DNA of 36,310 nucleotides from Nitrospinota bacterium (GTDB lineage Bacteria; UBA8248). The stretch lies in NCBI GenBank assembly GCA_046581755.1, contig JAYGFR010000250.1, positions 1-36,310 on the forward strand, read 5' to 3'. The notes beneath the pieces are model-generated. The model was not told the DNA's origin and ran no database searches. It saw nothing but the letters and a program-made list of their open reading frames with translations. Position 1 is the stretch's first letter. Each line of letters begins with the position of its first letter. Shown here piece by piece: positions 2,370-25,776 of this stretch. A program made the position numbers and the translations under genes.

Positions 2370-5097
2370 AGGGGCTGGGGAGGCTCCCCCCGTCCAGGCC
2401 GCCATGCCCGGGCGCATCCGGGAAGCCCCCAAAAAGGGAGGGGCCGGCAGCAACAGCCCGGCCATGCGCCAGTTCCTAGAAATCAAAAGCCGTCATCCCG
2501 ATTCCCTGCTGTTTTTTCAGATGGGCGATTTTTTCGAGATGTTTTTCGAGGATGCCCTTGTCGGCGCAAAGGTTCTCGAACTGACCCTGACTTCCCGCCA
2601 AAAGGACTCTGACGGCGGGCCCATCCCCATGTGCGGCGTTCCGGTGCATGCACTCGATTCCTATTCCTCGCGGCTCCTCGAGGCAGGCTATAAGGTCGCT
2701 ATCTGCGAGCAGGTGGGAAACGTTTCCGAGGCAAAAGGAATCGTCAAGCGCGAGGTCGTCCGGATCCTCACACCCGGAACGGTCAACGATCCGAAATTGA
2801 TGGACGGAAAGGAGCCATGCTATCTGGCGGCGCTTTTTGGCGACGAAGCCAAGCCAAATTCGGGATGGGGCGTTGCCTGGGTGGATTTATCCACGGGCGA
2901 ATTTTGCGCCAGCGAGATTGCGGGAAACCGCGCCGGTATGCTCCTGGCGGATGAGATCGAGCGGCTGCGGCCGAGGGAACTCTTGATTTCCGAAGAAGCC
3001 GCCCTGCCGGAACCGGCGATGGGTCTTTTGACGGAAATCGGGGCCCGGGTGGAACGCCGGGGTGTGGATGCATTTCGAGGCCCCTCGACGGCATCGCTCC
3101 TTTCCGAGCAGTTCGGCGAAGACGAAGACATCGATGCGGAAGCGAAAAGGCATCCATTGGCCTCAGCCGCCGCCGCCGCCCTGATTTCCTATATCCGGGA
3201 AAACCAGCCCGGCGATCTTCCCCATCTGCGGCCCATTTCCTTCCAGCGCCATTCGGACACCATGCTGTTCGACGCCGCCACCCAGCGGAACCTCGAACTG
3301 GTTCGATCCTCCCTGGACGGAGGACGAAAGGGAACGCTCCTGGATCTGATGGATGAAACGCTGACGGCCATGGGCGGACGCTTGATGAAGCGATGGGTTC
3401 TGTCGCCGCTAATTTTGGTGAAGGCTGTGGCGCGGCGCGCCGACGCGGTGGAGGAACTGGTCGAGGCCCGTGCCCGCCGCGATGCCCTGCGGGCCGCGCT
3501 CGGTGATATCCAGGACCTGGAACGGATCCTGGGGCGGGTCGGCATTCAAACAGCGAACGCGCGGGATCTTCTGGCGCTGGGAAACTCCCTCGCCGCCCTG
3601 CCGGCGCTTCGTGAGGCGCTGGATGATTCGCGTTCGGCTTTCCTGGCCGATATCCGGGACGAATGGGATTCGATGGAGGATTTATCGAAAGAACTCTGCG
3701 ATTCGCTTCAGGAAAGTCCTCCCCTGACGATTCGCGAGGGGGGGATGATTCGGGACGGAATGGACCCCGAACTCGACCGCCTGCGGGATGCGAGCCGGGA
3801 GGGGAAATCCTGGATCGAGTCCTACGTGATGAAGGAGCGCGAGCGGACCGGCCTGCCGCTGAAGGTAGGGTTCAACCGGGTATTCGGTTTTTATCTCGAG
3901 TTGTCAAAGCGTTATTCGGATGATGCCCCCATCGAATACACCCGAAAGCAGACTCTGGTGTCCGCCGAGCGTTACGTGACCCCGGAACTGAAAAAAATCG
4001 AGGACGATGTCCTGGGGGCCGAGGAGAAAGCCAAGGAACTCGAATATCTCCTCTTCGGGCGGCTCCGGGCCTGCGTCGCATCCGAATCCAGGCGAATCCT
4101 GCAGGCCGCGGACCGGGTAGGGCGCCTCGATGCCGCGGCATCGATGGCGGAACTCGCCTTCCTCAGGGGGTATGTGCGGCCCGAGATCGACGAGGGAGAG
4201 GGCATCGAAATTATCGAGGGGCGGCATCCCGTAATGGAGGCCTATCTTGCGGCGGCATTTGTTCCCAATGACCTGCGCATCGGGGGCGAGAGGCAAATCC
4301 TCATCGTGACGGGCCCCAACATGGCGGGAAAATCCACCTTTCTCCGCCAGGCGGCCCTGACGATTCTGATGGCGCAGATGGGCAGTTTCGTCCCCGCGAA
4401 ATCGGCTAGAATCGGTTTGGTGGATCGGGTGTTCACTCGCGTGGGCGCGCATGATCGCCTCCTCGAGGGGCAAAGCACCTTTATGGTGGAGATGATCGAG
4501 ACGGCCACCATCCTCCGGGAGGCCACTTCGAGGAGTTTCGTCGTACTCGATGAGGTGGGCCGGGGGACCAGCACCTACGATGGTGTGAGCATCGCCTGGT
4601 CCGTGGTCGAGTATCTCCACGAATCCCCCGAGCACCGGGCGCGCACCCTTTTTGCCACCCATTATCATGAGTTGGCCGAGCTTACGAAGCTCTGGCCCCG
4701 GGTGTCGAACCTGACGGTGGAGGTGCGGGAATGGGGGGATGAAGTGGTATTCCTTCGAAAAGTCAGTGAGGGGAGCAGCGACCGGAGCTACGGAATCCAT
4801 GTCGGCCGCCTGGCGGGCCTGCCCGATGAGGTCATCAGGCGGGCCAGGGAAATCCTCGCCGGACTCGAATCCGGAGAGAATTCGCCCGTTGCCCGCCCGA
4901 GGACGAGCGTTGGCAGAAAATCCGGCGGGCCGACGGAAAATCAGCTTCCTCTCTTTGAGGATGTATCATCGGCGATAGTGGCCGAGTTGAGCCGGATCGA
5001 CCCCGACAGGCTGAATCCGCGCGAGGCCTTGGATCTGCTTTACGATCTGAGCGCCCGGGCAAAAGGCCGGGGAAACAATTCATTGATTGAGCCCTGA
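2353..5097 (+). CDS. mutS: DNA mismatch repair protein MutS
   Basis: GDFFEMF, PMCGVP, Walker A TGPNMAGKST, STFMVEM, DEVGRGTS, FATHYHEL and a C-terminal QLPLF clamp-binding-like motif. Start uncertain (2353 or 2404). Confidence 0.97.
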   Translation: MSPSIRGAGEAPPVQAAMPGRIREAPKKGGAGSNSPAMRQFLEIKSRHPDSLLFFQMGDFFEMFFEDALVGAKVLELTLTSRQKDSDGGPIPMCGVPVHALDSYSSRLLEAGYKVAICEQVGNVSEAKGIVKREVVRILTPGTVNDPKLMDGKEPCYLAALFGDEAKPNSGWGVAWVDLSTGEFCASEIAGNRAGMLLADEIERLRPRELLISEEAALPEPAMGLLTEIGARVERRGVDAFRGPSTASLLSEQFGEDEDIDAEAKRHPLASAAAAALISYIRENQPGDLPHLRPISFQRHSDTMLFDAATQRNLELVRSSLDGGRKGTLLDLMDETLTAMGGRLMKRWVLSPLILVKAVARRADAVEELVEARARRDALRAALGDIQDLERILGRVGIQTANARDLLALGNSLAALPALREALDDSRSAFLADIRDEWDSMEDLSKELCDSLQESPPLTIREGGMIRDGMDPELDRLRDASREGKSWIESYVMKERERTGLPLKVGFNRVFGFYLELSKRYSDDAPIEYTRKQTLVSAERYVTPELKKIEDDVLGAEEKAKELEYLLFGRLRACVASESRRILQAADRVGRLDAAASMAELAFLRGYVRPEIDEGEGIEIIEGRHPVMEAYLAAAFVPNDLRIGGERQILIVTGPNMAGKSTFLRQAALTILMAQMGSFVPAKSARIGLVDRVFTRVGAHDRLLEGQSTFMVEMIETATILREATSRSFVVLDEVGRGTSTYDGVSIAWSVVEYLHESPEHRARTLFATHYHELAELTKLWPRVSNLTVEVREWGDEVVFLRKVSEGSSDRSYGIHVGRLAGLPDEVIRRAREILAGLESGENSPVARPRTSVGRKSGGPTENQLPLFEDVSSAIVAELSRIDPDRLNPREALDLLYDLSARAKGRGNNSLIEP

Positions 5098-5116
5098 GGG
5101 ATAAAGGGGATATAAT
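5087..5116 (+). promoter_or_regulatory. Putative sigma70 promoter for the DUF4390-kinase-REC/LpxC operon
   Basis: TTGAGC-18 nt-TATAAT. Confidence 0.4.
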
Positions 5117-5140
5117 CCTCCCTTGATTATGGGAGAGGGC

Positions 5141-5755
5141 ATGAGCGGTAAGTTGATGTATTTCACCACATTATGGCGATCGATCTTAACGGCTGGCTCC
5201 ATTTTGTTGCTGGCGGGGACCGGGTTACCAGCCATTGGTGCATCGGAAAACGGGAGTTCGCCCGAGATTCGGGATATGGTGGTCGTGGAAAAGCAGGGCC
5301 GCCTCCTCGCATTTGTATCGTTGCGCGGTGCATTCTCGCCCAAGGTGTTCGAAGCTCTTCAAAGCGGGGTGACCACGCGTTTTACCTTCGAAATCGCCTT
5401 GATGCGGCACAGAGTCCTCATCTACGACACCGAGGTGGACCGCCAAACGCTGGTCCACATGATTAAATATGACACCCTGAAAAAGGCGTATACCTTCACC
5501 TCTCAAAATGGTTCGGATGAAAAAATCGAGAAAGTTACGAAAAGCCGGAAGGAAATGATGAACTGGATGGCGGATATCAATGGCCACGAGATAGCGCAGG
5601 TCGGCGATCTGAATCCCAACGAGCGCTATTATATCCAGGTCCGCGCCAAGCTTAATTCGGTGGATTTCTCATTTCCTTTCAACTACATGCTCTCCTTCCT
5701 GGCTAACAAGACACCGTGGGCCGCTTCTCCCCTCTTCGACGCAAAGGGCATGTAG
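5141..5755 (+). CDS. DUF4390-like exported protein
   Basis: Signal-peptide-like N-terminus; EALQSGVTTRFTFEIAL and IKYDTLKKAY segments; directly upstream of an NtrY-like kinase. Confidence 0.75.
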   Translation: MSGKLMYFTTLWRSILTAGSILLLAGTGLPAIGASENGSSPEIRDMVVVEKQGRLLAFVSLRGAFSPKVFEALQSGVTTRFTFEIALMRHRVLIYDTEVDRQTLVHMIKYDTLKKAYTFTSQNGSDEKIEKVTKSRKEMMNWMADINGHEIAQVGDLNPNERYYIQVRAKLNSVDFSFPFNYMLSFLANKTPWAASPLFDAKGM

Positions 5756-5758: not shown

Positions 5759-8023
5759 ATGTATCCCACGAGCCTGGATTACGAGGAAATCACCGCACGC
5801 CGGCGAAAGAATATTCGAAGGGCGACTCTCGGCCTGATCGGCATTACGGTCCTTTTGTTGACCGCCTGGATTTATTTCAAGGAACTGGAGCCGGGAACGC
5901 CGCTACTGAACAATGTGGTGGTGTTCGCTCTCGTCAATCTCAACATCATCCTTTTGATGGTCTTGGGCCTGCTGATCGTTCGAAACCTCGTTCGTCTTTA
6001 TCAATCCTCGCAAAAGGGACCGGGCGGCCTTCGGCTTCAGGTGAAGCTCATTGGTGCGTTCGTCGGTTTCACCTTGGTGCCCTCGGTGGCCTTGTTCCTG
6101 ATCGCGAGCGGCCTCATTAATCAAAGCTTCAACACGATCTTCAACATGGAAGTCGAAGGCGCCCTCAAAGGCTCGGTCCTGGTGGTCGAAACCTATTACC
6201 GCGAGACCGAGCGGGACGCGCTGGCCAGTGCGAAGAGTTTGGCCAAGGATATCGAGGAAAGAGGGTGGAGCGGCCTCAAGAATGCCCGCCTTTTGAAGGC
6301 CCATATCAAGGCCGTCAGGGGAAATTACCGAGCGGACGCGATTCAGCTGTTCAACGCCGATCGCAAAAGTCTGGCCTACGACATTCGGGAAAACATCCCC
6401 TCGGCGATGGTTTTTTCCCCCAATCAGGCCTACGTCGAGAAGGTACTGCAGGGGGAGATCCGATCAAGCGTGGAAAGTTGGGGCGATGGCGATGCCATTC
6501 ACGGCGTTGTGCCCATCAAGTCGCGCTCCAAGGTGACGGGTTTCGTCGTGGTTTCCCGGTATATTCCAGAGCGGCTCGCCGCGAAGATGAAGGACATGAT
6601 CATTGCCTACAAGGACTACAAGGAAATCGAACTGTCGAAAAATCCAATCAAGGCGAGCTATATCATTACATTTCTCCTCATCACGCTCCTGATCCTGTTT
6701 GCGGCCACTTGGTTCGGCTTCTACATCGCCCGCGGCATCACGGTGGCGATAGAAAAACTGGCCGAGGCCACCCGCTCCGTCGCCGAAGGCGACCTGGACC
6801 AACGGGTGGATGTCCAGGCCGACGGCGAAGTGGGAATCCTGGTCGATTCGTTCAACATCATGACGCAGGAACTGATGGCCAATAAAAGGAAAATCGAAGA
6901 CGCGACCTTGGACCTCCAGCGATCGAGCGCCGAAATAGACCAAAGACGCCGCTACATGGAGGCCATGCTCGAACATATCGGTACCGGCGTGGTGTCCATC
7001 AACCGCAGGGGAAGGGTTACCATCCTGAATAACGCCGCCGGCGAACTTCTCCGCATTGAGCCGGAATGGGCCCTCGGCAAGCCGTTCAACCAGGTATTCA
7101 AGGCCCAGCACCTCGAGCCCATCCGGCGGTTTCTGCGGACGATGCGCGAGGAGGGCCGCAAGAGCGTTTCCGAACAGGTCGATGTCCTGATCGACGGTCA
7201 GCTCCTGGCCCTGCGGGCGAGCCTCACATTGCTCCGGGACGCGGACGAGAGGCATCTCGGCGCGGTGGTCGTTTTCGACGATCTGTCGGCCCTCATTCGC
7301 GCCCAAAAAGTGGCGGCATGGCGGGAGGTGGCCCAGGGCATCGCCCACGAAATCAAGAACCCGCTCACGCCCATTCAGCTTTCCACCGAAAGAATGCGCC
7401 GAAAGTTCGAGCAAAAGGCGGTGGATTTTCCCGAGGTATTCGAAATTGCCACCGACACCATTATCCATCAAGTGCAGGGGCTCATGGAATTGGTGAACGA
7501 ATTCAGCCGCTTCGCCCGGATGCCCGAACCGCGCCTTCGGCCCTGCCTGATTGCCTCGCTCATCGATCAGGTGGTCGATCTTTACAGGAGCCGCCGGGGG
7601 GATTTGTCGCTCGGCCAGGAAATCCGCGGCAAGCTGCCTTCTATCATGGCCGATCCCGATCAAATTCAACGCGTCTTGATCAACCTGCTGGAAAATGCAT
7701 TTGATTCCATGGATGCCGAGGGAGAGGTCAAGGTTCACGCCCATTTGAACACCGAACGGAATCAGGTGGTCATCGAGATTTCCGACGAGGGGAAGGGAAT
7801 CCCCGTGGAGAACAAGGAGCATATTTTCTCCCCTTATTTCTCCACCAAATTCCAGGGCTCGGGTCTTGGCCTTGCTATCTGCCACCGGATTGTGGACGAT
7901 CACAACGGTACCATCACTGTGCGGGATAACCGGCCGCAGGGTTCTATATTCCGAATCGATCTCCCCGTCGCATCATCAGCGCCCATACCCGCAGAAATCG
8001 AGAGGACGGCAGCGATTGGATAA
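5759..8023 (+). CDS. ntrY: NtrY-like membrane sensor histidine kinase (TM-periplasmic-HAMP-PAS-HisKA-HATPase)
   Basis: Several TM helices, HAMP (EGDLDQRV..DEVGILVDSFN), PAS, H-box AHEIKNPLTPIQL, N-box NLLENA, DEGKGI, GSGLGLAI. Confidence 0.88.
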   Translation: MYPTSLDYEEITARRRKNIRRATLGLIGITVLLLTAWIYFKELEPGTPLLNNVVVFALVNLNIILLMVLGLLIVRNLVRLYQSSQKGPGGLRLQVKLIGAFVGFTLVPSVALFLIASGLINQSFNTIFNMEVEGALKGSVLVVETYYRETERDALASAKSLAKDIEERGWSGLKNARLLKAHIKAVRGNYRADAIQLFNADRKSLAYDIRENIPSAMVFSPNQAYVEKVLQGEIRSSVESWGDGDAIHGVVPIKSRSKVTGFVVVSRYIPERLAAKMKDMIIAYKDYKEIELSKNPIKASYIITFLLITLLILFAATWFGFYIARGITVAIEKLAEATRSVAEGDLDQRVDVQADGEVGILVDSFNIMTQELMANKRKIEDATLDLQRSSAEIDQRRRYMEAMLEHIGTGVVSINRRGRVTILNNAAGELLRIEPEWALGKPFNQVFKAQHLEPIRRFLRTMREEGRKSVSEQVDVLIDGQLLALRASLTLLRDADERHLGAVVVFDDLSALIRAQKVAAWREVAQGIAHEIKNPLTPIQLSTERMRRKFEQKAVDFPEVFEIATDTIIHQVQGLMELVNEFSRFARMPEPRLRPCLIASLIDQVVDLYRSRRGDLSLGQEIRGKLPSIMADPDQIQRVLINLLENAFDSMDAEGEVKVHAHLNTERNQVVIEISDEGKGIPVENKEHIFSPYFSTKFQGSGLGLAICHRIVDDHNGTITVRDNRPQGSIFRIDLPVASSAPIPAEIERTAAIG

Positions 8024-9359
8024 GGGGCAAATTCTTATTGTCGACGACGAAGAAAGCATAATCTCCAGTCTCGAGGGCATCCTTGAAGATGAGGGCTACC
8101 GCACGCTCAAGGCCACATCTGGGGAGACGGCCCTGGACCTGGTTCGCTCGGAATCTCCCGATGTCGTGTTGGTGGATGTCTGGATGCCCGGAATCGACGG
8201 AATCAAGACGCTTCAGGCAGTTAAAAACATGCATCCGGAAACCGAAGTGGTCGTCATGTCCGGGCACGGGACCATCGAGACGGCGGTCGCTGCGACAAAA
8301 ATGGGAGCTTTCGATTTCATCGAAAAACCTCTTTCCATGGAGTCCGTTCTCCGCGTCATCGGGTTGGCGGTGCGCAATAGAAGGCTCAAGGATTCCGGTG
8401 CGGCCTCTGGAAAAAAACCGCGCCGCGCAAAACGGAAGCCTCGCGTTGTCAATCATCGCGAAAGCGCCTGGAATGTCCCCGGTCAGGAGGCTGTCTCATC
8501 CGTGGGTTCGGCCAATTCTTTCTCTTTCGAGCGGCCCCAGAGAACGATCGACAAGAGCGTGGTCCTCTATGGCCGTGGGCTTCACTCGGGCCTGAAAACG
8601 GGTTTAATTCTCGAGCCTCTTCCCCCTGGCAGCGGGATTCGCTTCGGGAGCCTGACCACGAACGAAACCGTGGGGGCCCGGGCGGAGTTCGTCGATAATA
8701 CCAATCACGCCACCAATCTCAGGGATGGCGAAATCGTTGCCCGGACAATTGAGCACTTGATGAGCGTCCTCCATGCCTACGGAGTTTCCAATCTTCTGGT
8801 AAAGCTGAGCGAAGAGGTGCCGAACATGGACGGATCGTCGCTGGAGTTTTGCCGCTTGATCGAGGACGCCGGCCTTGTCGATCAGCCGGACGAACTGCCT
8901 TCCATCGTTATCGAGGACGTACTCGAATATGGCGATCCCGGATCGCCGGATGGATATATCCGGGTGGAACCGGGCGAGGGTTTCTCCGTCTCCTACGACC
9001 TGGACCTGCCCAGGCCCATCGGCAAGCAATCATTCGAGTACCGCCACGATAGCGTCGAATCCTTTCAACGGGAAGTCGCTCCCGCACGGACATTTAGTTT
9101 TAGCTGGGAGCTCGAAGCGCTGGAGGAGATGGGCCTGGGGGAGGGCGGCCGCTGGGGCAATGTCATCCTTGTCGATAAGGAGCGAGTGGTAAACACCGAA
9201 CTTCGCTTCGAGGACGAGTTTGTGCGCCATAAAATTCTCGACATTTTCGGCGATATATATTTGTTGGGCCGCCCGGTGGAAGGAAAAATTATCGCCTCGC
9301 GTTCGGGCCACCGCCACAATGTCGGCCTGGTTCGGCTCATCGGCAAAGCCCTCCTTTAA
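8016..9359 (+). CDS. lpxC: Fusion protein: response-regulator receiver domain plus UDP-3-O-acyl-N-acetylglucosamine deacetylase (LpxC)
   Basis: TTG start overlaps the kinase stop, with GAGAGGA upstream. REC motifs: ILIVDDE, D54 in LVDVWMPG, MSGHG, FIEKP. LpxC motifs: QRTI, GLHSG, TIEHLMS, MDGSS, ARTF, HKILD, SGH. Confidence 0.93.
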   Translation: MDKGQILIVDDEESIISSLEGILEDEGYRTLKATSGETALDLVRSESPDVVLVDVWMPGIDGIKTLQAVKNMHPETEVVVMSGHGTIETAVAATKMGAFDFIEKPLSMESVLRVIGLAVRNRRLKDSGAASGKKPRRAKRKPRVVNHRESAWNVPGQEAVSSVGSANSFSFERPQRTIDKSVVLYGRGLHSGLKTGLILEPLPPGSGIRFGSLTTNETVGARAEFVDNTNHATNLRDGEIVARTIEHLMSVLHAYGVSNLLVKLSEEVPNMDGSSLEFCRLIEDAGLVDQPDELPSIVIEDVLEYGDPGSPDGYIRVEPGEGFSVSYDLDLPRPIGKQSFEYRHDSVESFQREVAPARTFSFSWELEALEEMGLGEGGRWGNVILVDKERVVNTELRFEDEFVRHKILDIFGDIYLLGRPVEGKIIASRSGHRHNVGLVRLIGKALL

Positions 9360-9401
9360 CCGGGAGGCATACCTGAAACGACTTCTCCAAAGGAACCGGA
9401 A

Positions 9402-10466
9402 TTGAGCGATCGACCGGCCCTGACCTACCAATCGGCAGGCGTGGATGTGGCCGCCGGTGAGAATTTCGCCGATAAAATCGCAAGCGCCTTGCGCTCCACC
9501 CACGGGGCGCATTCGAGCCGCATTCTCGGAGACGGATCCGAATTCGCGGGGTTGTTCCGGCTCGGAGAGGGGTTGCGCGATCCCATCCTCGTTTCGGGGA
9601 CGGACGGCGTGGGCACCAAACTGAAGGTAGCCCAGCGCCTCGGCCGGCACGCCACCATCGGAATCGACCTGGTGGCGATGTGCGTGAACGATGTCTTGAC
9701 GTCGGGGGCCACCCCCTTATTTTTCCTCGACTATATCGCGGCTGGAAAGCTTGATTCCGAAGTGCTGGCTGCGGTCGTCGGCGGCATTGCCGATGGTTGC
9801 CGGCAGGCGGGGTGCGTTTTACTCGGTGGGGAAACCGCCGAAATGCCCGATTTTTACGAGCCCGGCGTGTACGACATCTCAGGGTTTGCGGTCGGCGTCG
9901 CCGAGGGGAAAAAAATTTTGGGGGCTGCGAAAGTTCGAGCGGGAGATGTGCTCATCGGCTTGCCCTCATCGGGCCTGCACAGCAACGGCTACTCCCTGGT
10001 CCGCCGAGTGTTCGAGGATCCGGCCGAATGGGCATCGGAATCAGTTTTTTCCAAACCGGGACCCACTCTGGGAGAGATACTGCTCGAGCCCACCAAGATA
10101 TACGCGGGAGCCATCGCCGCCATTCGTGAGAACCCGGCGGTGCACGCGGTTTCCCATATAACGGGGGGCGGCCTTCCCGGAAACGTCGCCCGGATCATGC
10201 CGCCCGGATCGCAGGCGGTGTTGAAACCCCCAAGCTGGCAGGTGCCCGGAATTTTTCGAGAAATCGAAAAACGTGGACCCGTCGAGCGCGCCGAAATGTT
10301 CAGGACCTTCAATATGGGTCTCGGGATGGTCATTGCGGTAAGCCCCGGGGGGGCCGATGGCGCATTGGCGGCATTGGCAGAGGCTGGCGAGACCCCTTGC
10401 CGGGCCGGAGAGGTTCGAGAGGGGAAGGTTGGCGGTGCCGTGCGCATCGAGGGAGTGGACCTGTGA
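9402..10466 (+). CDS. purM: Phosphoribosylformylglycinamidine cyclo-ligase (AIR synthetase)
   Basis: YQSAGVD, TDGVGTK, GGETAEMP, SGLHSNGYSL, HITGGG, TFNMG. Confidence 0.97.
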   Translation: MSDRPALTYQSAGVDVAAGENFADKIASALRSTHGAHSSRILGDGSEFAGLFRLGEGLRDPILVSGTDGVGTKLKVAQRLGRHATIGIDLVAMCVNDVLTSGATPLFFLDYIAAGKLDSEVLAAVVGGIADGCRQAGCVLLGGETAEMPDFYEPGVYDISGFAVGVAEGKKILGAAKVRAGDVLIGLPSSGLHSNGYSLVRRVFEDPAEWASESVFSKPGPTLGEILLEPTKIYAGAIAAIRENPAVHAVSHITGGGLPGNVARIMPPGSQAVLKPPSWQVPGIFREIEKRGPVERAEMFRTFNMGLGMVIAVSPGGADGALAALAEAGETPCRAGEVREGKVGGAVRIEGVDL

Positions 10467-11255: not shown

Positions 11256-11285
11256 TTGACAGGCATCAGGGGGCGTTTCTAGAAT
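11256..11285 (+). promoter_or_regulatory. Putative sigma70 promoter upstream of lolA-rseP-ispG-proS
   Basis: TTGACA-18 nt-TAGAAT in an AT-rich intergenic region. Confidence 0.65.
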
Positions 11286-11313
11286 GCGGTGGATGGCTGA
11301 AAAGGGCATTTTA

Positions 11314-12084
11314 ATGAGGGTAAACACGCAATTGCGGGCTAATCGGGGGGAGGTTTTCGGGAGCGCACTCATCGTATTGCTCTTGTTTTATGCGCCGGCC
11401 GCAGTCGGCGGCGCGGAACTTTCTCCGTCCAATTCGCGGCGGGGCCAGGCCGATCGACGAACCGCGGAGATTATCTCCCGTATCCAGAAAAAATATGAAG
11501 AGACCCGGACGCTAAAGGCCAATTTTGAGCAAGAAAACCACCTCCGCTCTCTCGGCCGGATTACACGCTCGAAAGGGCGAATCATTCTTTACAAGCCCGG
11601 GCGGATTCGGGCCGTTTACACCGAGCCGGAAAACCAGCTCATCGTCTCGAACGGCAAACGGCTCTGGATTCACACGCCTCGCCTCAACCAGGTGATCGTG
11701 AGCGACTTGGGGGGGCGGGGCGCGGCTTCGTTGCCCCTACTTTTTCTTGCCGGCAAGGGAAAGCTGACCCGGGAGTTTCGTATCGAGTTGGTGGACGAGG
11801 GTGTCTCCCCGAGGAAAGGGGGGGCATGGAAAGCGGGTCAGCCCCACCGTCTTTTGCTCAAGCCGGTTCGCTCCGTGGCGGGGTTCCAGAAAATGTGGAT
11901 CGAGGCCGATCCGGTAAGCTTTCAGATTTCCGGCATCGAATACGCCGATGAATTAGGGAATACAACCCGCATACGATTTTCGAATATCAATGAAAATGCC
12001 GCCGTTTCCCCGGAGCTTTTCGAGTTTGACATACCGCCGGGAGTCGAAGTATTGAAGACCCCCGGCCAGAGCGGCCCCAAATAG
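11314..12084 (+). CDS. lolA: Outer-membrane lipoprotein carrier protein LolA family
   Basis: Signal peptide, ANFEQ, KPGRIR..Y, IVSNGKRLW, LNQV, FEFDIPPGVEV. Start placed downstream of the predicted -10 box. Confidence 0.88.
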   Translation: MRVNTQLRANRGEVFGSALIVLLLFYAPAAVGGAELSPSNSRRGQADRRTAEIISRIQKKYEETRTLKANFEQENHLRSLGRITRSKGRIILYKPGRIRAVYTEPENQLIVSNGKRLWIHTPRLNQVIVSDLGGRGAASLPLLFLAGKGKLTREFRIELVDEGVSPRKGGAWKAGQPHRLLLKPVRSVAGFQKMWIEADPVSFQISGIEYADELGNTTRIRFSNINENAAVSPELFEFDIPPGVEVLKTPGQSGPK

Positions 12085-12099
12085 AGCGAAGGAAGTAAA

Positions 12100-13236
12100 A
12101 TGCCTGTCCAGAATTTTGCGTGGTTATCTCCATATATCGACTGGATCTCCAGTTTCGGATATGCCGTTTTCGGGATGGTGGTCGTCCTGGGAATGCTCAT
12201 CTTCATCCACGAATTGGGACACTTTCTCGTTGCCAAGAAGCTGGGCATCGGCGTCACGACGTTTTCCCTGGGATTCGGAAAGCGAATTTGGGGGTTCCGG
12301 CGCGGAGAAACCGAGTACTGTCTCTCAATTCTTCCCCTGGGCGGATACGTGAAGCTCATGGGCGAGGACCCCGAGGCGAGCCGCGAGGACCCCGATGAAC
12401 CCGCCGAGCCGGAGGATCCGGAAAAATCATTCTATCTCCGCCCCGTCCACCAACGGATGGCGGTCATAATAGCGGGACCGTTATTCAATATTCTCTTTGC
12501 CCTGGTTCTTAGCTGGCTCCTATTCATGGTGGGCCAGCCGGTTCCGGGCACATGGGTGGGCAAAGTAGTTCGCGATACGCCGGCCCAATCCGCCGGCCTT
12601 CAGGCGGACGATCATATCGTCGGCGTCGGCGGCAAATCCATTCTCCAGTGGTCGGAACTGGTGGCGATCATCCGGGTGAATGCCGGAAAGCGCCTGTTGC
12701 TCCGGGTGGAGCGCAAGGGGCGGACCCTCGTGGTTCCAATTACACCCGCCTCGAAAAGCCCCGATGGGAAGGAATTAGGCTTTGGGCGTATCGGTATCCA
12801 GAGATCTTCCCGGGTTCATAAAATACGTTATGGGCCGATCGACAGTATCCGGCAGAGCGCACGCCAAAATTACAACATCATTCGCCTAACGGTCGTGACC
12901 CTCTATGGCATGATCAAGCGGCCCCAATCAGCGGATATCGGCGGTCCGATTCGAATCATGGGCATCGCCGGGGAGCAGGCCAAGCGGGGGTTGAGCTTTC
13001 TCGTCGGACTTTCGATTTTGCTGAGTCTGAACCTGGCCATCTTGAATCTTCTCCCCATTCCTATTCTCGATGGCGGACATTTGGTTTTCCTGATCATCGA
13101 AGGTTTGCGGGGCAAGCCCTTGAGCCTCCGTTTCAGGGAAATGTCTGCCCAGGTAGGAATTGTGATGCTGATCGGCGTGATGCTGATCGCCACCTACAAG
13201 GACACGATGTACTATTTCCTCAAGTGGACGCGTTAG
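12100..13236 (+). CDS. rseP: RIP metalloprotease RseP
   Basis: HELGH, PLGGYV, AGPLFN, a PDZ domain, NLLPIPILDGG. Confidence 0.96.
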   Translation: MPVQNFAWLSPYIDWISSFGYAVFGMVVVLGMLIFIHELGHFLVAKKLGIGVTTFSLGFGKRIWGFRRGETEYCLSILPLGGYVKLMGEDPEASREDPDEPAEPEDPEKSFYLRPVHQRMAVIIAGPLFNILFALVLSWLLFMVGQPVPGTWVGKVVRDTPAQSAGLQADDHIVGVGGKSILQWSELVAIIRVNAGKRLLLRVERKGRTLVVPITPASKSPDGKELGFGRIGIQRSSRVHKIRYGPIDSIRQSARQNYNIIRLTVVTLYGMIKRPQSADIGGPIRIMGIAGEQAKRGLSFLVGLSILLSLNLAILNLLPIPILDGGHLVFLIIEGLRGKPLSLRFREMSAQVGIVMLIGVMLIATYKDTMYYFLKWTR

Positions 13237-13255
13237 GATCCGCGGCAAAGGCGGC

Positions 13256-14539
13256 ATGATGGAAGATTGGTCGGCCCAGAAATTTACGGATAGTGTATTT
13301 TTCGAAACCCCCATTCCCGGCGTGGGCCTTCCGTCCCGGAATTCTCCGGGGGGCGGAGCCACCCGGCTTCCCGTCCTGAATTCGCTCCCGGAGGCCGGAG
13401 AGCCTGTCCCTTGCGCCGACCCCTCCCAATTTGTCCTTGCGCGCCGGAAGAGCCGCCAAATTAGCGTCAAGAATGTAAAAGTGGGCGGCGGCGCCCCGAT
13501 TGCCGTCCAGTCGATGTGCAATACCTACACCCACGACATTGAGGCAACGGTCTCCCAAATTGAACGCCTCGAGGTGGCCGGATGCGAGATTGTACGCGTA
13601 GCGGTCCCTGACGAAAGGGCGGCGAACGCCTTGGCCGAGATCAAAAGGCGCATCCGCATTCCCCTGGTCGCCGATATTCATTTCGACTACCGGCTTGCGC
13701 TGATGGCGGCCGAGGCGGGGGTTGATTGCCTCCGGATCAACCCGGGCAACATCAACGGCGAGGACCGCGTCAATGAAGTGGTGGCCGCCGCCAAGGACCA
13801 CGGCATTTCGATTCGAGTCGGCGTGAACGCCGGGTCGCTCGAAAAGCATCTGCTTGATCGCTATGGAGGCGCAACGCCCCAGGCCATCGTCGAAAGCGGG
13901 CTGCGCCACATTGTCATGCTCGAAAAGCGGGGTTTTTATGAAACCAAGATATCCCTGAAGGCCTCGGACGTGGCCCGGACGGTTCTCGCCTATCGCATCA
14001 TGGCCCAGAAGGTAGATTACCCCCTCCACCTGGGAATTACCGAGAGCGGCAGCCTTCGGTCCGGCAGCGTCAAGTCCGCGGTCGGGCTTGGAATTCTCCT
14101 CTCCGAGGGAATCGGAGATACGCTGCGCGTTTCGCTGGCATCGGATCCCGTCGATGAGGTGACCGTGGCATTCGAGATTCTCAAAAGCCTCCGCCTTCGC
14201 CAGAAGGGGGTGAATGTCGTGGCCTGTCCCTCCTGCGGGCGGGTGCAAATCGACGTGGACAAGCTGACGCTCGAAATCGAAAAAGAGCTGTCCCATATCG
14301 ACGCCCCCATCACGGTGGCGGTGATGGGGTGCGAGGTGAACGGGCCTGGCGAGGCGCGAGAGGCGGACATCGGCGTAGCCGGTGGCCACAAGCGCGCCTT
14401 GATGTTCATGAAGGGAGAAAAAGTGGGCCTCGTCGAGTATGCGGACATCAAGAAAAACCTGGTACGCGAGGTGGAAATTCTGGCCGCGCAATGGGCGGAA
14501 GCTTCCGCCAAGGATATGTCCGGAAGCGGGGACGCTTAA
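13256..14539 (+). CDS. ispG: 4-hydroxy-3-methylbut-2-en-1-yl diphosphate synthase
   Basis: VQSM, ADIHF, RINPGN, GVNAGSL, PLHLGITE, CPSCGR, GCEVNGPGEA. Start uncertain. Confidence 0.96.
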   Translation: MMEDWSAQKFTDSVFFETPIPGVGLPSRNSPGGGATRLPVLNSLPEAGEPVPCADPSQFVLARRKSRQISVKNVKVGGGAPIAVQSMCNTYTHDIEATVSQIERLEVAGCEIVRVAVPDERAANALAEIKRRIRIPLVADIHFDYRLALMAAEAGVDCLRINPGNINGEDRVNEVVAAAKDHGISIRVGVNAGSLEKHLLDRYGGATPQAIVESGLRHIVMLEKRGFYETKISLKASDVARTVLAYRIMAQKVDYPLHLGITESGSLRSGSVKSAVGLGILLSEGIGDTLRVSLASDPVDEVTVAFEILKSLRLRQKGVNVVACPSCGRVQIDVDKLTLEIEKELSHIDAPITVAVMGCEVNGPGEAREADIGVAGGHKRALMFMKGEKVGLVEYADIKKNLVREVEILAAQWAEASAKDMSGSGDA

Positions 14540-16263
14540 TGCGGTTCCGCAAAGCCTTTTTCCCCACCTTAAAAGAAGCGCCGGCCGAGGCCGAGGTGGT
14601 GAGCCACCGCCTCATGATTCGGGCGGCGATGATCCGGCGGCTCGCCGCCGGCATTTATATACTTCTTCCCCTCGGCGTCAGGGTCCAACGCAAGGTCGAG
14701 CGGATTTGCCGCGAGGAGATGGACCGTGCCGGTGCGCAGGAAGTATTCCTCCCCACATTGAATCCGGCCGAACTCTGGCAAAAGACCGGGCGCTGGGAGG
14801 TTTACGGCAAGGAACTTATTCGCCTGCAGGATCGGCACGGGAGGGAATTTTGCCTTGGGCCGACGCACGAGGAGGTCATCACCAATCTGATTAGCCGGGA
14901 AGTCCGCAGCTACCGCGACCTTCCCCAAAACCTCTACCAGATTCAAACCAAATTCCGGGACGAAATCCGCCCCCGCTTCGGGGTGATGCGGGGGCGCGAA
15001 TTCACCATGAAGGACGGCTACAGCTTCGACTGCGACGAAAGCGGCGCCGAGCGAAGCTATGGGCTGATGGTGGAGGCCTACAAACGGATATTCGCGCGTT
15101 GCGGCCTGGTCTATGGCGTCGTCGCGGCCGATTCAGGGGCGATCGGGGGGAGTTTTTCTCACGAGTTCATGGTCATGGCGGATACCGGCGAGGAAGCGAT
15201 TAGCATTTGCGAGAAATGTGGCTATTCGGCCAATACCGAGAAAACGCCTGTCGTCATTTCCCTGCCCGATAACGGGGGCGGGAAGATGGAAAAAGTGCAC
15301 ACCCCGGGCGCGCATACGGTGGAAGAGGTGGCCTCTTTCCTCCAATTTCCCAGCGCGCAGGTTACCAAAACGCTACTCTACATGGCGGACGAAAAACCCG
15401 TTGCCCTCATGTTACCGGGCCACCGGGAGTTGAACGAGATCAAGGCCAAAAACGCCCTCGGTGCAATCGATTTATATTTGGCCGATGCGGCGACGGTGGA
15501 GCGGCTGACGGGTGCGGCGGTGGGCTTTGCCGGGCCGGTGGGGCTCAAGGAGGAGGTGCATATCCTGGCCGACAGCTCCCTGGAGGGCCGGGGGGGGCTG
15601 GTTCTCGGTGCGAACGAAACCGACCACCACTACACCGGGGCCGAGGAAGGCCGGGATTTCAAGGCAAATGCCTTCGCCGATCTGGCGCAGGCCCAAGAGG
15701 GCGATGCGTGTCCCGATTGCGGCCACGGCATGAACTTCCGCCGGGGCATCGAGGTAGGGCATGTTTTCAAGCTGGGGACGAAGTATAGTGAAGCGCTCGA
15801 TGCGACCTACCTGGATGAAGACGGAAAGGCGCAAACCATCGTCATGGGCTGCTACGGTATCGGCATCGGCCGGACGGTGGCGGCCGCCATCGAGCAAAAC
15901 CATGACGATGACGGCATCATCTGGCCTGTACCCATCGCTCCCTATCACGCGGACGTCATCATCGTGAACATGAAGGATGCCGAATGCGGGGAGGTGGCGG
16001 ATAAATTCCATGCCGACCTCTGCCGCCTAGGGGTCGAGGCCGTCCTGGACGACCGGGACGAGCGCGCCGGCGTTAAGTTCAAGGATGCGGATCTGATCGG
16101 GTTCCCCTATCAGATCATCATCGCCCCCAGGAGCCTCAAAGAGGGAAATATCGAGCTCAAATTCAGGGAAACGGGGGAGAGGGAATACCTGCCCATCGAT
16201 ACGGCGGCGGAAACGATCAGGGCCTATATTTCAAAAGAACTCGAAGAGGCCGCATCGGCCTGA
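14539..16263 (+). CDS. proS: Proline--tRNA ligase (bacterial type with editing domain)
   Basis: ATG overlaps the ispG stop (TAATG); GPTHEE, FRDEIRPRFG, GIEVGHVF, MGCYGIG, GVKFKDADLIG. Confidence 0.97.
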   Translation: MRFRKAFFPTLKEAPAEAEVVSHRLMIRAAMIRRLAAGIYILLPLGVRVQRKVERICREEMDRAGAQEVFLPTLNPAELWQKTGRWEVYGKELIRLQDRHGREFCLGPTHEEVITNLISREVRSYRDLPQNLYQIQTKFRDEIRPRFGVMRGREFTMKDGYSFDCDESGAERSYGLMVEAYKRIFARCGLVYGVVAADSGAIGGSFSHEFMVMADTGEEAISICEKCGYSANTEKTPVVISLPDNGGGKMEKVHTPGAHTVEEVASFLQFPSAQVTKTLLYMADEKPVALMLPGHRELNEIKAKNALGAIDLYLADAATVERLTGAAVGFAGPVGLKEEVHILADSSLEGRGGLVLGANETDHHYTGAEEGRDFKANAFADLAQAQEGDACPDCGHGMNFRRGIEVGHVFKLGTKYSEALDATYLDEDGKAQTIVMGCYGIGIGRTVAAAIEQNHDDDGIIWPVPIAPYHADVIIVNMKDAECGEVADKFHADLCRLGVEAVLDDRDERAGVKFKDADLIGFPYQIIIAPRSLKEGNIELKFRETGEREYLPIDTAAETIRAYISKELEEAASA

Positions 16264-16315
16264 CGCGTTTTCTCGGTGCCCTTCGATGCGGGCCCTGCCG
16301 TCAGCCCACTGATAG

Positions 16316-16345
16316 TTGACGGTCCCGCTTTTACTCTTTTATATT
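16316..16345 (+). promoter_or_regulatory. Putative sigma70 promoter for the small ORFs, tRNA and tilS
   Basis: TTGACG-18 nt-TATATT. Confidence 0.45.
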
Positions 16346-16404
16346 TCATGCTGCAGAGGTGGAGAACTGCCGACTGGACCGTGCGGCAGGGAAGGGAAGT
16401 GGTC

Positions 16405-16593
16405 ATGGTTTCTCCGGATATCCGCGAATGCGCGGTTTGCGCCTGGCGCGAAACCTGCCGCCTGAAGTGGAGAAACGAGCCGAACGGGGCGCTTCATTGC
16501 CCGGAATTTACATTTGACTTGCGGTTGGCGCAGGCGCAACAGCAGGTGGAAAAGAGTCCAAGGCAGACTTCCGAACAGGAGGCCAACGACTGA
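16405..16593 (+). CDS. Small Cys-rich hypothetical protein (62 aa, CX2CX5CX13C)
   Basis: ATG after purine-rich AGGGAAGGGAAG; MVSPDIRECAVCAWRETCRLKWRNEPNGALHCPEF... Confidence 0.75.
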   Translation: MVSPDIRECAVCAWRETCRLKWRNEPNGALHCPEFTFDLRLAQAQQQVEKSPRQTSEQEAND

Positions 16594-16748
16594 TGCGACG
16601 AGAAATCGAGATCCTTTGCCTGATATTTATCGGCTATATTTGCGTTGTGCTGGGGCTCCGCATGGACGACATCGGGTTCCGGACATTCTTCTACATCCTC
16701 TCTGGAGTATTCATCCTCGCGATTTTTCGTCCCAAGGAATCGCCCTGA
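16593..16748 (+). CDS. Small two-TM membrane protein (51 aa; absent from the ORF track)
   Basis: TGATG coupling to the upstream ORF and an AGGAGG RBS. My translation: MRREIEILCLIFIGYICVVLGLRMDDIGFRTFFYILSGVFILAIFRPKESP. Confidence 0.7.
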   Translation: MRREIEILCLIFIGYICVVLGLRMDDIGFRTFFYILSGVFILAIFRPKESP

Positions 16749-16767
16749 ACCGGACGAGATACCTTCC

Positions 16768-16844
16768 GGCGGTGTAGCTCAAGCGGTTAGAGCACGCGGC
16801 TCATATCCGCGGTGTTGGGGGTTCGAGTCCCTCCACCGCCACCA
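16768..16844 (+). tRNA. tRNA with CAT anticodon, most likely elongator tRNA-Met
   Basis: Cloverleaf: acceptor GGCGGTG/CACCGCC, D arm GCTC/GAGC, anticodon stem CGCGG/CCGCG with loop CTCATAT, T loop TTCGAGT, encoded CCA. G1:C72 is paired, so it is not an initiator tRNA. Confidence 0.95.
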
Positions 16845-16874
16845 ATTCCTTTCGTCGGCCGAGGAGGGCGCGGG

Positions 16875-18398
16875 ATGCCCGAAAACCTCCCGGAAAGGCG
16901 TCATTCAACAACCATTCGCGAATTTGAGGCTAAGGTACGCGAGGGATGCCGCCGTTGCGGCCTCGAAGAGTTCAGGGGCCCCCTCCTGGCCGGCTTCTCT
17001 GGCGGCGCCGATTCAACGGCCCTGATCCTCTCTCTTTCATCGCTCATGAGCGGCCGGGGCGGCTGGCCCTCATCGCTCACAGCCGTTCATGTCGATCATG
17101 GCCTGCGCCCCGGGGGGGCCGAGCGGGACGCCCTCCATGCCGAACAGTTCTGCAAAACCCACGATATTCCATTTTTCCTCTGCCGCGCCGCCGTCGATCC
17201 GGCCCAGGGCTTCGGCCTGGAGGATGCTGCCAGAAAAGCCCGCCGGGATTCGTTCCTTCAAGCGGCTCAAGAAAGGGGGGCCAAGGTCATCGCTCTGGCC
17301 CATACCCAGGACGAGCAGGCCGAAACCGTCCTCATGCGCCTTTTCGAGGGCGCAGGACCCAAAGGCCTCGCCGGTATTTCTTCCCAAACCCTTCTTCGGG
17401 AAGAATCCGCCCAGGGGGACCCCTCGCGGGGGGAACCCGCGCTGTCAAAGAGTTTGAAGGTTTTCATCGTACGCCCTCTTTTGAGGGTATCCAGGGCCGA
17501 GGTCATGGCATATCTCGAAGCCCGGGGCGCGCAATGGGTGGAGGATGAGACGAACTCCGATGAAACCCGGCTCAGAAACCTCGTTCGGCGAAGAATTATT
17601 CCCATTCTGCGCGAAACCATGGGGGGGGCCGTCACCGAGCGAATCGCCGGCAGCGCAGACCATTTGAGCGATGCGATCGAAACCCTCGAGGCATCGGTCG
17701 ATGACGCGTGCGGGGCGTTTCTTTCAAAAGAGGGGAATCATGTCCGCATTTTCCCGCTATCGGGGGTCAGGCTCCTCCCCAGCGCCGTACGGGCGGGGCT
17801 CTGGTCGGCGGCCCTGAAAACCGGTGGCGGAGCCGCCGGCCGCCGAATGGCACTGGAGAGAATCATTAAGAGTATCGACCGTCTGGCACTCGAAAGTGGT
17901 CCCTCCGCCACCCTCAGCCTACCGGGAAAGTCACGGGCATGGCGGCGGTACGACTCGATTTTCATCGGCATCCCGGACGAAGAATCCCCCTTGCCGGAGG
18001 ATGAGGTTTCTCTCGCCATTCCGGGCCGGACCGTCCACCCCGGGCTGTGCATCGAGATAGAAGCAAGCCCGCCCGTGGAGGGGGGCGAGGCGCCGGACGG
18101 CAAGTTTGCGGCTGATCTGGATTCCCTCAGCCTTCCGGAGGGGATCATTGTTCGAACCAGACGCCCCGGAGATCGGTTTTATCCTCCTGGAGGAGCGGGA
18201 GAGCGAAAATTGAAGGAGTTTTTCATAGACCGGAAGATACCCCGTCTCGAACGGGAATATATCCCGCTCCTCGCCTCCGGAGATGAGATAATCTGGGCGG
18301 TGGGGCATGCTGTTTCGGAAAAATACCGCTCCCGCCCCGGATCGCGTCAATTTGTGGCTCTGACAGCCCGAACGGTCAAGGATATCCGAGACCTATAG
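16875..18398 (+). CDS. tilS: tRNA(Ile)-lysidine synthetase
   Basis: SGGADS PP-loop, HVDHGLR, AHTQDEQAET, RPLL, DETN..RN, C-terminal RRPGDRF..KLKEFF. Confidence 0.95.
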   Translation: MPENLPERRHSTTIREFEAKVREGCRRCGLEEFRGPLLAGFSGGADSTALILSLSSLMSGRGGWPSSLTAVHVDHGLRPGGAERDALHAEQFCKTHDIPFFLCRAAVDPAQGFGLEDAARKARRDSFLQAAQERGAKVIALAHTQDEQAETVLMRLFEGAGPKGLAGISSQTLLREESAQGDPSRGEPALSKSLKVFIVRPLLRVSRAEVMAYLEARGAQWVEDETNSDETRLRNLVRRRIIPILRETMGGAVTERIAGSADHLSDAIETLEASVDDACGAFLSKEGNHVRIFPLSGVRLLPSAVRAGLWSAALKTGGGAAGRRMALERIIKSIDRLALESGPSATLSLPGKSRAWRRYDSIFIGIPDEESPLPEDEVSLAIPGRTVHPGLCIEIEASPPVEGGEAPDGKFAADLDSLSLPEGIIVRTRRPGDRFYPPGGAGERKLKEFFIDRKIPRLEREYIPLLASGDEIIWAVGHAVSEKYRSRPGSRQFVALTARTVKDIRDL

Positions 18399-18469
18399 AT
18401 AGACGAACCCCACAAATCCTGATATTCTATGGTAACTGTAGTCTTATCCATGATTTTTGAGGGAATGCA

Positions 18470-20398
18470 TTGGATCAATTTTATAAAAACCTAGCCATGT
18501 GGCTTATCATCGGTCTCGTCATGGTGGGGCTGTTTCAGGCCTTCAATAGCACCCGGACGCTGGACCGCAAAATCGTCTACAGCGACTTTCTCCAGTCCGT
18601 GAATCAGGGCAAGATTACCGAGGTCCTCGTTCAGGGGGACAATATCCGGGGCCGCTATCTCAACGGCAAAATATTCCAGACCTATGCGCCCAAGGACCCC
18701 AACTTGATCGACACGCTCCGGAAAAAGGGCGTACGTATCAGCGCGGAGCCTGTGGAGCAGAATTCATGGTATGTGAATCTTCTCCTGAGCTGGTTACCGA
18801 TGCTGGTTCTGCTCGGGGTGTGGATATTCTTCATGCGTCAGATGCAAATGGGCGGGTCGAAGGCCCTTTCTTTCGGAAAGAGCAAGGCACGGCTGGTGGC
18901 CGAGCCCGATAAGAAAAAAGTGACTTTCAAGGACGTCGCCGGAATCGAGGAGGCGCAAGAGGAACTCGAAGAGATTGTCGACTTCCTTCGGGATCCGCCG
19001 AAATACACCCGCCTCGGCGCGCGGATTCCCAAGGGCGTGCTCATGATCGGCCCTCCTGGAACGGGGAAGACCCTCCTTGCCCGTGCCATCGCGGGAGAGG
19101 CGGACGTTCCCTTTTTCCAGATCAGCGGCTCCAGCTTTGTCGAGATGTTCGTCGGCGTCGGGGCTTCCCGCGTCCGCGACCTCTTCGAGCAGGGAAAAGC
19201 CAATGCCCCATGCATCATCTTTATCGATGAAATTGATGCGGTTGGCCGCCACCGCGGCGCCGGGCTGGGCGGCGGTCACGATGAACGCGAGCAAACCCTG
19301 AACCAGCTTCTTGTCGAGATGGACGGCTTCGAGTCGAACGACGGCGTGATACTCATATCCGCCACCAACCGGCCCGACGTTCTCGACCCGGCCCTTTTGC
19401 GCCCGGGGCGGTTCGATCGCCAGATTGTCGTGTCCTTGCCGGACATCATCGGCCGCCTCAAAATTCTCCAGGTGCATTCCAGGGAAATCCCCCTCGACGA
19501 TTTGGCAAATCTCGAACTGATCGCGCGGGGCACGCCCCGGTTCTCGGGTGCGGATCTAGCCAACCTCCTGAATGAAGCCTCTCTGATCGCGGCCCGGCTC
19601 AGAAAGGACGCCGTGGAGATGTCCGACCTGACCGAGGCCAAGGATAAGGTTCTGATGGGCAAGGAAAGGCGGAGCCTCGTTCTGAGCGAGAAAGAGAGGG
19701 AAAACACCGCCTACCACGAGTCGGGGCACGCGCTCGTCTCTGTTCTCACTCCGGGCACGGACCCGGTGGAGAAAGTGACGATCATTCCGAGGGGATTTTC
19801 ACTGGGGAGCACCTGGTCGTTTCCGGAAGAGGACCGCTACAGCGAAAACCGGACATTCCTGCTCAAACAACTGAATATCCTGATGGGCGGCCGCGCGGCG
19901 GAGATGTTGGTCTTCGACGAAATGACCACGGGCGCCAAACAGGATATCCAAAGCTCCACGGAGATCGCGCGGAACATGGTTTGCGAGTGGGGGATGAGCG
20001 AAAAGCTTGGGCCGCTTTCCTACGGGAAGAAGCAGGAGCAGATTTTCCTGGGGAGGGAATTGTCTCAACACCGCGACTATAGCGATTCCATCGCCAGGGC
20101 CATCGACGAGGAAGTAAAGAAATTGGTCACCAATGCGTACGAAAATGCCATCAATCTTCTGAGGGACAACCGGGACAAGCTCGACCTTCTGGCCAAGGGG
20201 CTTCTGGAATTCGAGACCCTCGATAGAGAGGACATCGAAGCCCTGCTCGAAACGGGTGAGGCGCCGGTGGCGCTCAAAAAGAAACAGGAAGCCCGCCAAA
20301 GCGAATTACGCCCTTCTCCGCGGACCAAACCGGAGAGTTCTCGCCCCCAGGCCGGCTCCAAACCCTCTCCCCCGGATTTGGCGCCGGGACAGGCATAG
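18470..20398 (+). CDS. ftsH: ATP-dependent zinc metalloprotease FtsH
   Basis: Two TM helices, [29 protein letters not shown]. Confidence 0.98.
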
Positions 20399-20549
20399 CA
20401 ACCGGTGGCGGGCGGGGCGGGGTTTCCGCCTCACACGAGCCGTCAGCGGTATACGCTTCCAACCAAGTCGCCTGACAAAAAAACCGATTTAATTCCCCGG
20501 CAAGCCAGGCGCGCAGCCTGGCGGCTCGCCCATCATCCGGAGGAGCGGA

Positions 20550-21278
20550 ATGCCCAAGCTCTGCGTTAACGTCGATCATGTGGCGACCGTCCGCCAGGCC
20601 CGCAAGACGGACGAGCCGGATCCGGTGGCGGCCGCGCTCATCGCCGAGCGGGCCGGGGCTGTGGGGATCACCATCCATCTTCGGGAGGACCGCCGCCACA
20701 TCCAGGATCGGGATCTCCGCCTCATGCGCGAAGTCGTTCGCGGGAAACTCAACCTGGAGATGGCCCCGATTCCGGAGATGAGGGATATTGCCCTTAACGT
20801 CGGCCCGGAACAGGTCTCTCTTGTCCCGGAGCGCCGGGAAGAGGTGACGACCGAGGGAGGCCTCGACGCCGCCGGACAGACGGATCGCCTTCCCGAGATC
20901 ATCGTCCCCCTGCGGGAGGCGAAAATTCTTGTCAGTTTGTTTATCGATCCAGATGATTCTCAAATCGAGGCCGCCAAAAAACTGGACGCCGATTCCGTGG
21001 AACTGAATACGGCGGCCTATTCGGAGGCCCGTGGAGAGGCTGCGCGCAAATCTGAAATCGCCGCGCTTCGCCACGCCTGCGAGCGGGCGCACGCCCTGGG
21101 CCTGGGGGTGTACGCAGGCCACGGATTGACCTATCTGAACGTTGAACCCATCGCAGATCTTCCGCATCTGGAGGAATTAAATATAGGCCATAGCATCGTG
21201 GCGCATTCCATTTTTGCCGGCTTTGAGCGGGCGGTGCGCGAAATGGCGTGCCTTGTCGATCGGCCGAGGAGGGGCTGA
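20550..21278 (+). CDS. pdxJ: Pyridoxine 5'-phosphate synthase
   Basis: [38 protein letters not shown]. Confidence 0.97.
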
Positions 21279-21280
21279 TC

Positions 21281-25747: not shown

Positions 25748-25776
25748 CCGAATTTCGTTGTTTTTGGAGATTCGCC

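Follow-up and report, generated by a model that had tools for sequence, protein, structure and literature searches.

LpxC and its closest described counterparts

The synthesis of lipid A is controlled mainly at LpxC, which is also a target of antibiotics. Response regulators with enzymes as outputs are represented by CheB, PleD, and RpfG, in which a receiver (REC) domain and an enzyme share one chain and phosphorylation is expected to gate the activity, but the enzymes concerned are those of signalling. Here we describe a gene in a 36,310-nucleotide stretch of DNA (hereafter termed the window; contig JAYGFR010000250.1 of the Nitrospinota assembly GCA_046581755.1) that joins a REC domain to LpxC in the same manner, i.e., to the enzyme that commits the cell to lipid A biosynthesis, directly behind a gene for an NtrY-type kinase.

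The NtrY/NtrX system (Brucella, with its NtrX structure PDB 5m7n; Rhodobacter; Caulobacter) shares the kinase architecture and the HEIKN box with our locus, and the REC domain of the fusion is closest to NtrX, the best solved matches being 4d6x and 5m7n. The regulator of that system has an AAA+ and helix-turn-helix (HTH) output, while the fusion has an enzyme output instead. NtrYX lowers the transcription of lpxC in R. sphaeroides (PMC7240162) and C. crescentus (PMC12444477), and lpxC was up 8.8-fold in R. sphaeroides without NtrYX, an effect judged indirect (PMC7240162). This known control is transcriptional, whereas the fusion would act on the enzyme. In Desulfovibrio vulgaris, lpxC is the single mapped target of the response regulator DVU2934 (PMC3333781), but there the regulator binds DNA ahead of an lpxC gene that is not fused to it. 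The order of a DUF4390 gene, a HEIKN kinase, and a regulator is the same in PlrP-PlrS-PlrR of Bordetella, where PlrP is a DUF4390 third component that limits the phosphatase activity of the kinase, according to genetics in Bordetella only. Unlike REC-LpxC, PlrR ends in a DNA-binding domain, and lpxC is not mentioned in the main text of that report (PMC13001219).

The controls of LpxC covered by the available sections of a 2025 review (PMC12444477) comprise proteolysis (FtsH/LapB/YejM), activation by MurA, Ght, and transcription by NtrYX and ChvGI; none of the post-translational ones there works by phosphorylation or through a receiver domain, and the words "fused" and "fusion" are absent from those sections. 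Section 12 of the same review states that very little is known of LpxC regulation outside Proteobacteria and that unknown strategies are to be expected. The LpxC-FabZ fusion, which indicates that LpxC tolerates being fused, is the only LpxC fusion in the available text of PMC3087551, and no REC-LpxC fusion appears in that of 10.1101/2021.11.05.467447. No LpxC term was found in the main text or the 10 supplementary files of PMC4558063. Altogether, no description of a REC-LpxC fusion was found among the papers listed by searches of the open literature; subscription papers and bioRxiv supplements lay outside this scope, and some survey of domains may mention the fusion briefly. The fusion is real, conserved, and apparently undescribed.

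Organization of the fusion gene

The features at the core of the locus are as follows.

8016..9359, forward strand: REC-LpxC fusion gene (447 aa), a continuous frame with a TTG start and no internal stop
8031..8354, forward strand: NtrX-type receiver domain, residues 6-113 (Pfam Response_reg, E 4e-30)
8394..8531, forward strand: linker, residues ~127-172, disordered and fast-evolving, standing in place of the AAA+/HTH domains of long relatives
8538..9341, forward strand: LpxC domain, residues 175-442 (Pfam LpxC PF03331, profile positions 1-266 of 268, E 5e-75)
5759..8023, forward strand: gene of an NtrY-type membrane histidine kinase (NtrY_N, HAMP, PAS, HisKA, and HATPase; four predicted membrane segments)
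8000..8006, forward strand: Shine-Dalgarno-like GAGAGGA in the 3' end of the kinase gene

The TTG start at 8016 is supported by GAGAGGA lying 9 nt upstream and by the closest homologue, which starts with MDKGQILIVDDE. Together with the 8-nt overlap between the end of the kinase frame and the start of the fusion, GAGAGGA suggests that the two genes are translationally coupled. The receiver residues D10, D11, D54 (8175-8177), S82, and K104 are in place, as are E246, H247, T359, H405, K406, D409, and H432 of LpxC. The LpxC part aligned to Aquifex LpxC at the zinc-ligand and catalytic residues, the roles of which we presume to be those of E78, H79, H238, K239, D242, and H265 in E. coli LpxC. The fusion scored 213.8 bits against the lpxC model TIGR00325 (cut-off 187.25). 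Among the NCBIfam models, NtrX (NF051870) was the best match to the REC domain, but it was confined to residues 5-127 and the whole-protein score fell below the cut-off (124 versus 600 bits). No AAA+ or HTH family match was found in the 447 residues by a Pfam scan. By every sequence test the protein is an LpxC, and its sequence marks it as derived from NtrX without being an NtrX itself; in its working it would resemble an enzyme-output response regulator. The initial annotation had described the same anatomy, including the overlap with the kinase stop, and all the motifs that it named are present.

The junction is not an assembly chimera. Four runs were checked, those with small word shares being excluded. 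Single contigs without joints or gaps contain 7600-9600 in run X3 and 7600-9367 in run X1, so that the junction lies within single contigs in two other runs. Run X2 gave no contig, and only four short pieces came from the RNA run X15; these do not cross the junction, and they demonstrate neither transcription nor an operon. The DNA sets that contain the window sequence are marine metagenomes.

Distribution of the fusion

Homologous fusions are numerous. Both Pfam domains are present in all the 120 matches listed of 7968 (8000 scored candidates); the nearest named proteins among the matches listed are of Nitrospinota or Candidatus Tectomicrobia, and no name mentions a receiver. A match was found in 50 of the 51 genomes of the phylum, the remaining one (G031, 93% complete) having no lpxC match. 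REC and LpxC stand in one frame directly behind ntrY in 30 of the 32 in-phylum regions, and the other two are cut by contig ends. Among 147 new representatives (50% clustering), there were 52 REC-LpxC (many of them fragments), 12 REC-AAA-LpxC, 6 AAA-LpxC fragments, 53 with LpxC alone, and 24 with REC alone. Named records beyond the phylum belong to Acidobacteriota, Desulfomonile, Syntrophorhabdaceae, and Spirochaetota. The architecture is no rarity; it is the reduced form of a REC-AAA+-HTH-LpxC fusion that occurs across the phylum and in these named records.

Some loci deviate in detail. In L145 (978-3289, genome G002), the ntrY beside a short fusion occupies two frames, owing to an assembly error or a real break. 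In L140 (4962-5179) and L142 (4894-5200) of the family f4, a gap of 200-300 bases separates ntrY from the fusion frame, with no DUF4390 match. An AAA_21 ATPase and DUF4276 pair and an IS110 transposase lie upstream of the orphan fusion in L036 (285-2118).

Repeated loss of the AAA+ and HTH domains

Most of the relatives carry a middle part of 290-360 residues, which contains an AAA+ domain of the sigma-54 type and, in many cases, a Fis-type HTH. In 104 distinct middle parts, Walker A was found in 101 and the DE of Walker B in 4 (19 being unmatched by the Walker B pattern), while neither GAFTGA nor the arginine-finger motif was found in any. We take the GAFTGA loop, the Walker B DE, and the arginine finger to be the motifs of sigma-54 activators, and all of them are present in the free NtrX of L108 and L081. 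Judged by its motifs, the middle part of the long form cannot activate sigma-54, and both its ATPase and its transcriptional output are dead.

We examined a tree of REC plus LpxC with 63 rows. These were left after 149 distinct sequences had been thinned at 88% identity, 6 partial sequences having been removed earlier. The short/long label switches 7 times on this tree, and at least 5 of the switches are forced by strong branches. When the tree was rooted on long outgroups, the short forms in the family of the window fell into 4 groups (3 forced), and their single origin was rejected (approximately unbiased test, p-AU 5e-113 with 11 rows; 0.0036 with 10 rows without P0059). An independent tree of NtrY, PurM, and PurN from 25 genomes gave 3 changes (p-AU 0.0004), with the genus of the window being sister to a long-form genome. 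The phylogenies indicate that this family underwent three or more deletions of the middle part. In addition, the linker of P0059 still holds the last helix of the HTH, a remnant that an in-frame deletion would leave. It follows that the gene in the window is a reduced ntrX-lpxC fusion. A short fusion also occurs within genus g8 (G048:C10:577839-579197), in which most of the other genomes have the long form, representing a recent deletion.

In L108 (2600-7356), ntrY lies side by side with a free lpxC and with an ntrX of the sigma-54 type that is intact. As its gene order differs and its LpxC falls outside the fused clade, L108 illustrates the association of lpxC with ntrY and ntrX but is not an ancestor.

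Retention of the receiver domain

The five receiver residues are retained in all 54 short forms. D54 and K104, as well as E246, H247, H405, K406, and D409, are found in 149 of 149 distinct sequences, H432 is invariant across 140 rows, and D54 is kept in 190 of 193 members of the wider fusion set. The nonsynonymous divergence (dN) was lower in REC than in LpxC in 7 of 7 short-form pairs, and that of the linker reached 0.95. The ratio of nonsynonymous to synonymous divergence (omega) was higher in AAA+ (0.15-0.42) than in REC for all 9 long-form pairs compared, and the HTH was under some constraint (0.03-0.69). These comparisons indicate that the REC domain was kept through each loss of AAA+/HTH. 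Our main argument is that the loss of the DNA-binding part leaves LpxC as the sole output in the chain, and the comparative evidence favors a working phospho-switch that acts on LpxC.

A signature on the surface of the fused LpxC

The following feature was found by the comparison between fused and free LpxC.

8562..8804, forward strand: fusion-specific signature V183, G196, I198, and K263, discontinuous, in the first LpxC beta-sheet

The alternating strand positions concerned are polar and variable in free LpxC but fixed in fused LpxC (63 fused versus 68 free domains). This strand alternation and the polar residues in free LpxC suggest that the signature positions face outward, and we regard the surface as a candidate docking surface. 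With the added representatives included and 11 ambiguous rows left out, at least 3 of the 4 features are present in 119 of 122 fused versus 1 of 107 free sequences; the proportion is 19 of 20 fused versus 1 of 107 free at 30-43% identity to the window, and the sheet surface of the fused enzyme is changed and stays so down to about 35% identity. The single free sequence with the signature comes from a contig of only 925 bp and may represent a truncated fusion. P0178, a free LpxC of 283 aa known from contigs of up to 35.8 kb, groups with a fused sequence within the fused clade (support 97) but shows 0 of the 4 features; a metagenome scan for the P0178 locus gave no match.

Structure prediction

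AlphaFold2 predicted two well-folded domains and a disordered linker, with the predicted local distance difference test score below 50 at residues 131-168. The predicted template modeling score (pTM) rose from 0.69 with 51 sequences to 0.73 with 140. As a simple calculation gives 0.60-0.64 for domains that are not placed relative to each other, the prediction may hold a weak, partial confidence between the domains. The LpxC part matched Aquifex LpxC with a template modeling score of 0.92-0.93 by target length (root-mean-square deviation 2.0). When REC (1-128) and LpxC (170-447) were predicted as separate chains, the score was 0.02 twice versus a mark of 0.32, but the controls did not fold either, and this result bears neither for nor against a contact of the domains. 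No coherent REC-LpxC covariation signal was found in 193 sequences, an alignment too shallow for the purpose (effective number 81). Linkers of the short forms range from 22 to 63 aa.

The kinase, DUF4390 gene, and genomic context

The kinase has H530 within HEIKN (7346-7348), and the H, N, and G boxes are intact in its relatives, including the short-form lineages. Two further features precede the kinase gene.

5123..5755, forward strand: gene of a DUF4390 protein, PlrP-like (PF14334, E 1.8e-28)
5087..5116, forward strand: sigma-70-like promoter candidate, TTGAGC, 18 nt, and TATAAT (10 of 12 consensus matches), just 5' of the DUF4390 gene

By analogy with PlrP (PMC13001219), the DUF4390 protein is a probable periplasmic modulator of the kinase. 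Of the 32 in-phylum regions, 21 have its gene upstream of ntrY, 4 gave no detection of it, and 7 are cut by the end of the contig. The promoter serves as a lead only, as the counts of promoters and terminators were no higher than chance (promoter sites: 2 found versus 2.0 expected). The gene order is lapA-like, mutS, DUF4390, ntrY, fusion, purM, purN, and lolA.

The genome (96.5% complete) was found to contain one lpxC, the fusion, so the second copy that the initial annotation had proposed to look for did not emerge; lpxA, lpxB, and lpxK are present on another contig. This combination suggests that the predicted LpxC is active as a deacetylase and that the enzyme half is probably needed by the cell. 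The N-terminal match to NtrY is unique in the genome, and no separate NtrX-like partner was found there, the next REC being 46% identical and beside another kinase. The same genome yielded no LapB over the cut-off (best 43 of 363 bits), no LapB zinc ribbon, and no YejM DUF3413 match, though divergent forms could be missed.

The gene with the LapA domain (PF06305) at 1962-2369 is followed directly by mutS with no lapB adjacent, and the same placement before mutS was seen in several relatives. Envelope genes lie downstream on the same strand (11284-27228), namely lolA, an rseP-like protease gene, ftsH, lptC, lptA, and an ABC ATPase gene in the lptB position, together with rpoN. Two open reading frames, 35462-36067 (201 aa) and 16276-16593 (105 aa), have no Pfam match and may not be genes.

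Possible mode of control and its alternatives

We consider it probable that NtrY sets the phosphorylation of REC, which in turn directly gates the activity of LpxC. The periplasmic DUF4390 protein would probably tune NtrY, a membrane kinase/phosphatase, and NtrY would set the phosphorylation of D54; REC, on its flexible tether, would then act upon the LpxC domain of the same chain and alter the deacetylase output. The likeliest means would be a change of the dimer state or the docking of REC to the outward side of the first beta-sheet. Phosphorylation by NtrY is suggested by the adjacency of the genes and by the NtrX-like helix 1 and DHp sequences. The pairing with NtrY put forward in the initial annotation is upheld by ntrY lying directly upstream, but direct phosphorylation of LpxC by the kinase is not, as the target would be the REC domain. 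Two of the conditions that the initial annotation had named as refuting its reading, a chimeric junction and a lack of homologous fusions, do not apply. We infer the contact of the domains, the effect on activity, its direction, and the signal. CheB and NtrC1-type regulators offer an analogy for the release of inhibition by phosphorylation, and we lean slightly toward the unphosphorylated REC restraining LpxC and phosphorylation freeing it. The transcriptional control that NtrYX and a sigma-54 regulator exert on lpxC elsewhere is counted in favor of direct gating.

Several points weigh against such gating. The kinase interface alone explains the constraint on REC, which does not show an action on LpxC, and the linker is both disordered and poorly conserved in sequence. 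Three of 193 fusions (P0145, P0137, and P0201) have another residue in place of D54. The pairs compared for dN are not independent, the gene-wide synonymous divergence is saturated in 2 of them and amounts to 2.45 in another, and the omega of REC is 0.31 in one pair, resting on 3 and 3 changes. No ntrY match was found in the flanks covered of seven distant loci (L034-L038, L045, and L143). As for the signature, its positions were chosen after inspection of the data, the fused proteins are essentially one clade, reversion is seen in one case (P0178), and the surface could serve self-association of LpxC or another partner. P0145 is also devoid of the other phosphorylation residues, being a pseudo-receiver.

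An unlikely alternative concerns location or stability, with REC tethering LpxC to NtrY at the membrane or gating the access of a protease rather than catalysis. Membrane recruitment (Ght) and proteolysis are known controls of LpxC (PMC12444477, sections 5 and 10), ftsH and a LapA-domain gene are within the window, and the linker is long and disordered. However, the signature on the sheet is left unexplained by tethering alone, and the following components of the FtsH/LapB/YejM type of control were not found: LapB, its zinc ribbon, and YejM as described above for the genome, and a conserved C-terminal degron tail among the 63 rows, most of which end 13-19 residues past the last GH motif. Among the three options initially raised (activity, oligomeric state, and stability), we rate stability governed by a degron of the E. 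coli type as the least likely.

Also unlikely is a passive fusion of co-expressed envelope genes, in which LpxC would be constitutive and REC would signal to another protein or buffer the phosphate of NtrY. Adjacency can precede fusion, as lpxC adjoins ntrY and a free ntrX in L108 and precedes a regulator operon in S. fumaroxidans (PMC3333781), and the linker is flexible and unconserved. If the fusion were passive, splitting would be cost-free, yet there is one credible free LpxC in the fused clade, without the signature, and the changed sheet surface persists to about 35% identity. Reversed signalling, in which LpxC would report the load of substrate or product to REC and NtrY and the HTH of the long form would then regulate envelope genes, appears very unlikely; Walker A persists in the long forms (101 of 104), many of which also have a Fis-type HTH under some constraint, but the short form, having lost the DNA-binding part at least three times, confines this explanation to the long forms or to kinase feedback. 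An artefact by assembly chimera or chance read-through has a negligible probability even for an assembly of 400 contigs, given the contigs of two other runs across the junction, the same fusion in 30 of 32 in-phylum regions, and the 120 listed homologues with both domains.

Implications

Returning to direct gating, we tentatively propose, at somewhat below even chances for the whole, that the DUF4390 protein, NtrY, and REC-LpxC form a three-part circuit, an allosteric phospho-switch of LpxC working through a purpose-evolved surface. The circuit would have originated by the fusion of a transcription factor to its target enzyme, with the ATPase and DNA-binding parts lost repeatedly, and would do the job of FtsH/LapB/YejM in E. 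coli. If true, direct phospho-control would be a new mode of LpxC regulation, the signal of NtrY would gain one output that can be measured, and LpxC would be indicated to have an allosteric surface. The 447-aa form is the minimal natural version, the easiest for work in vitro, and the series from long to short forms depicts a transcription regulator becoming an enzyme regulator.

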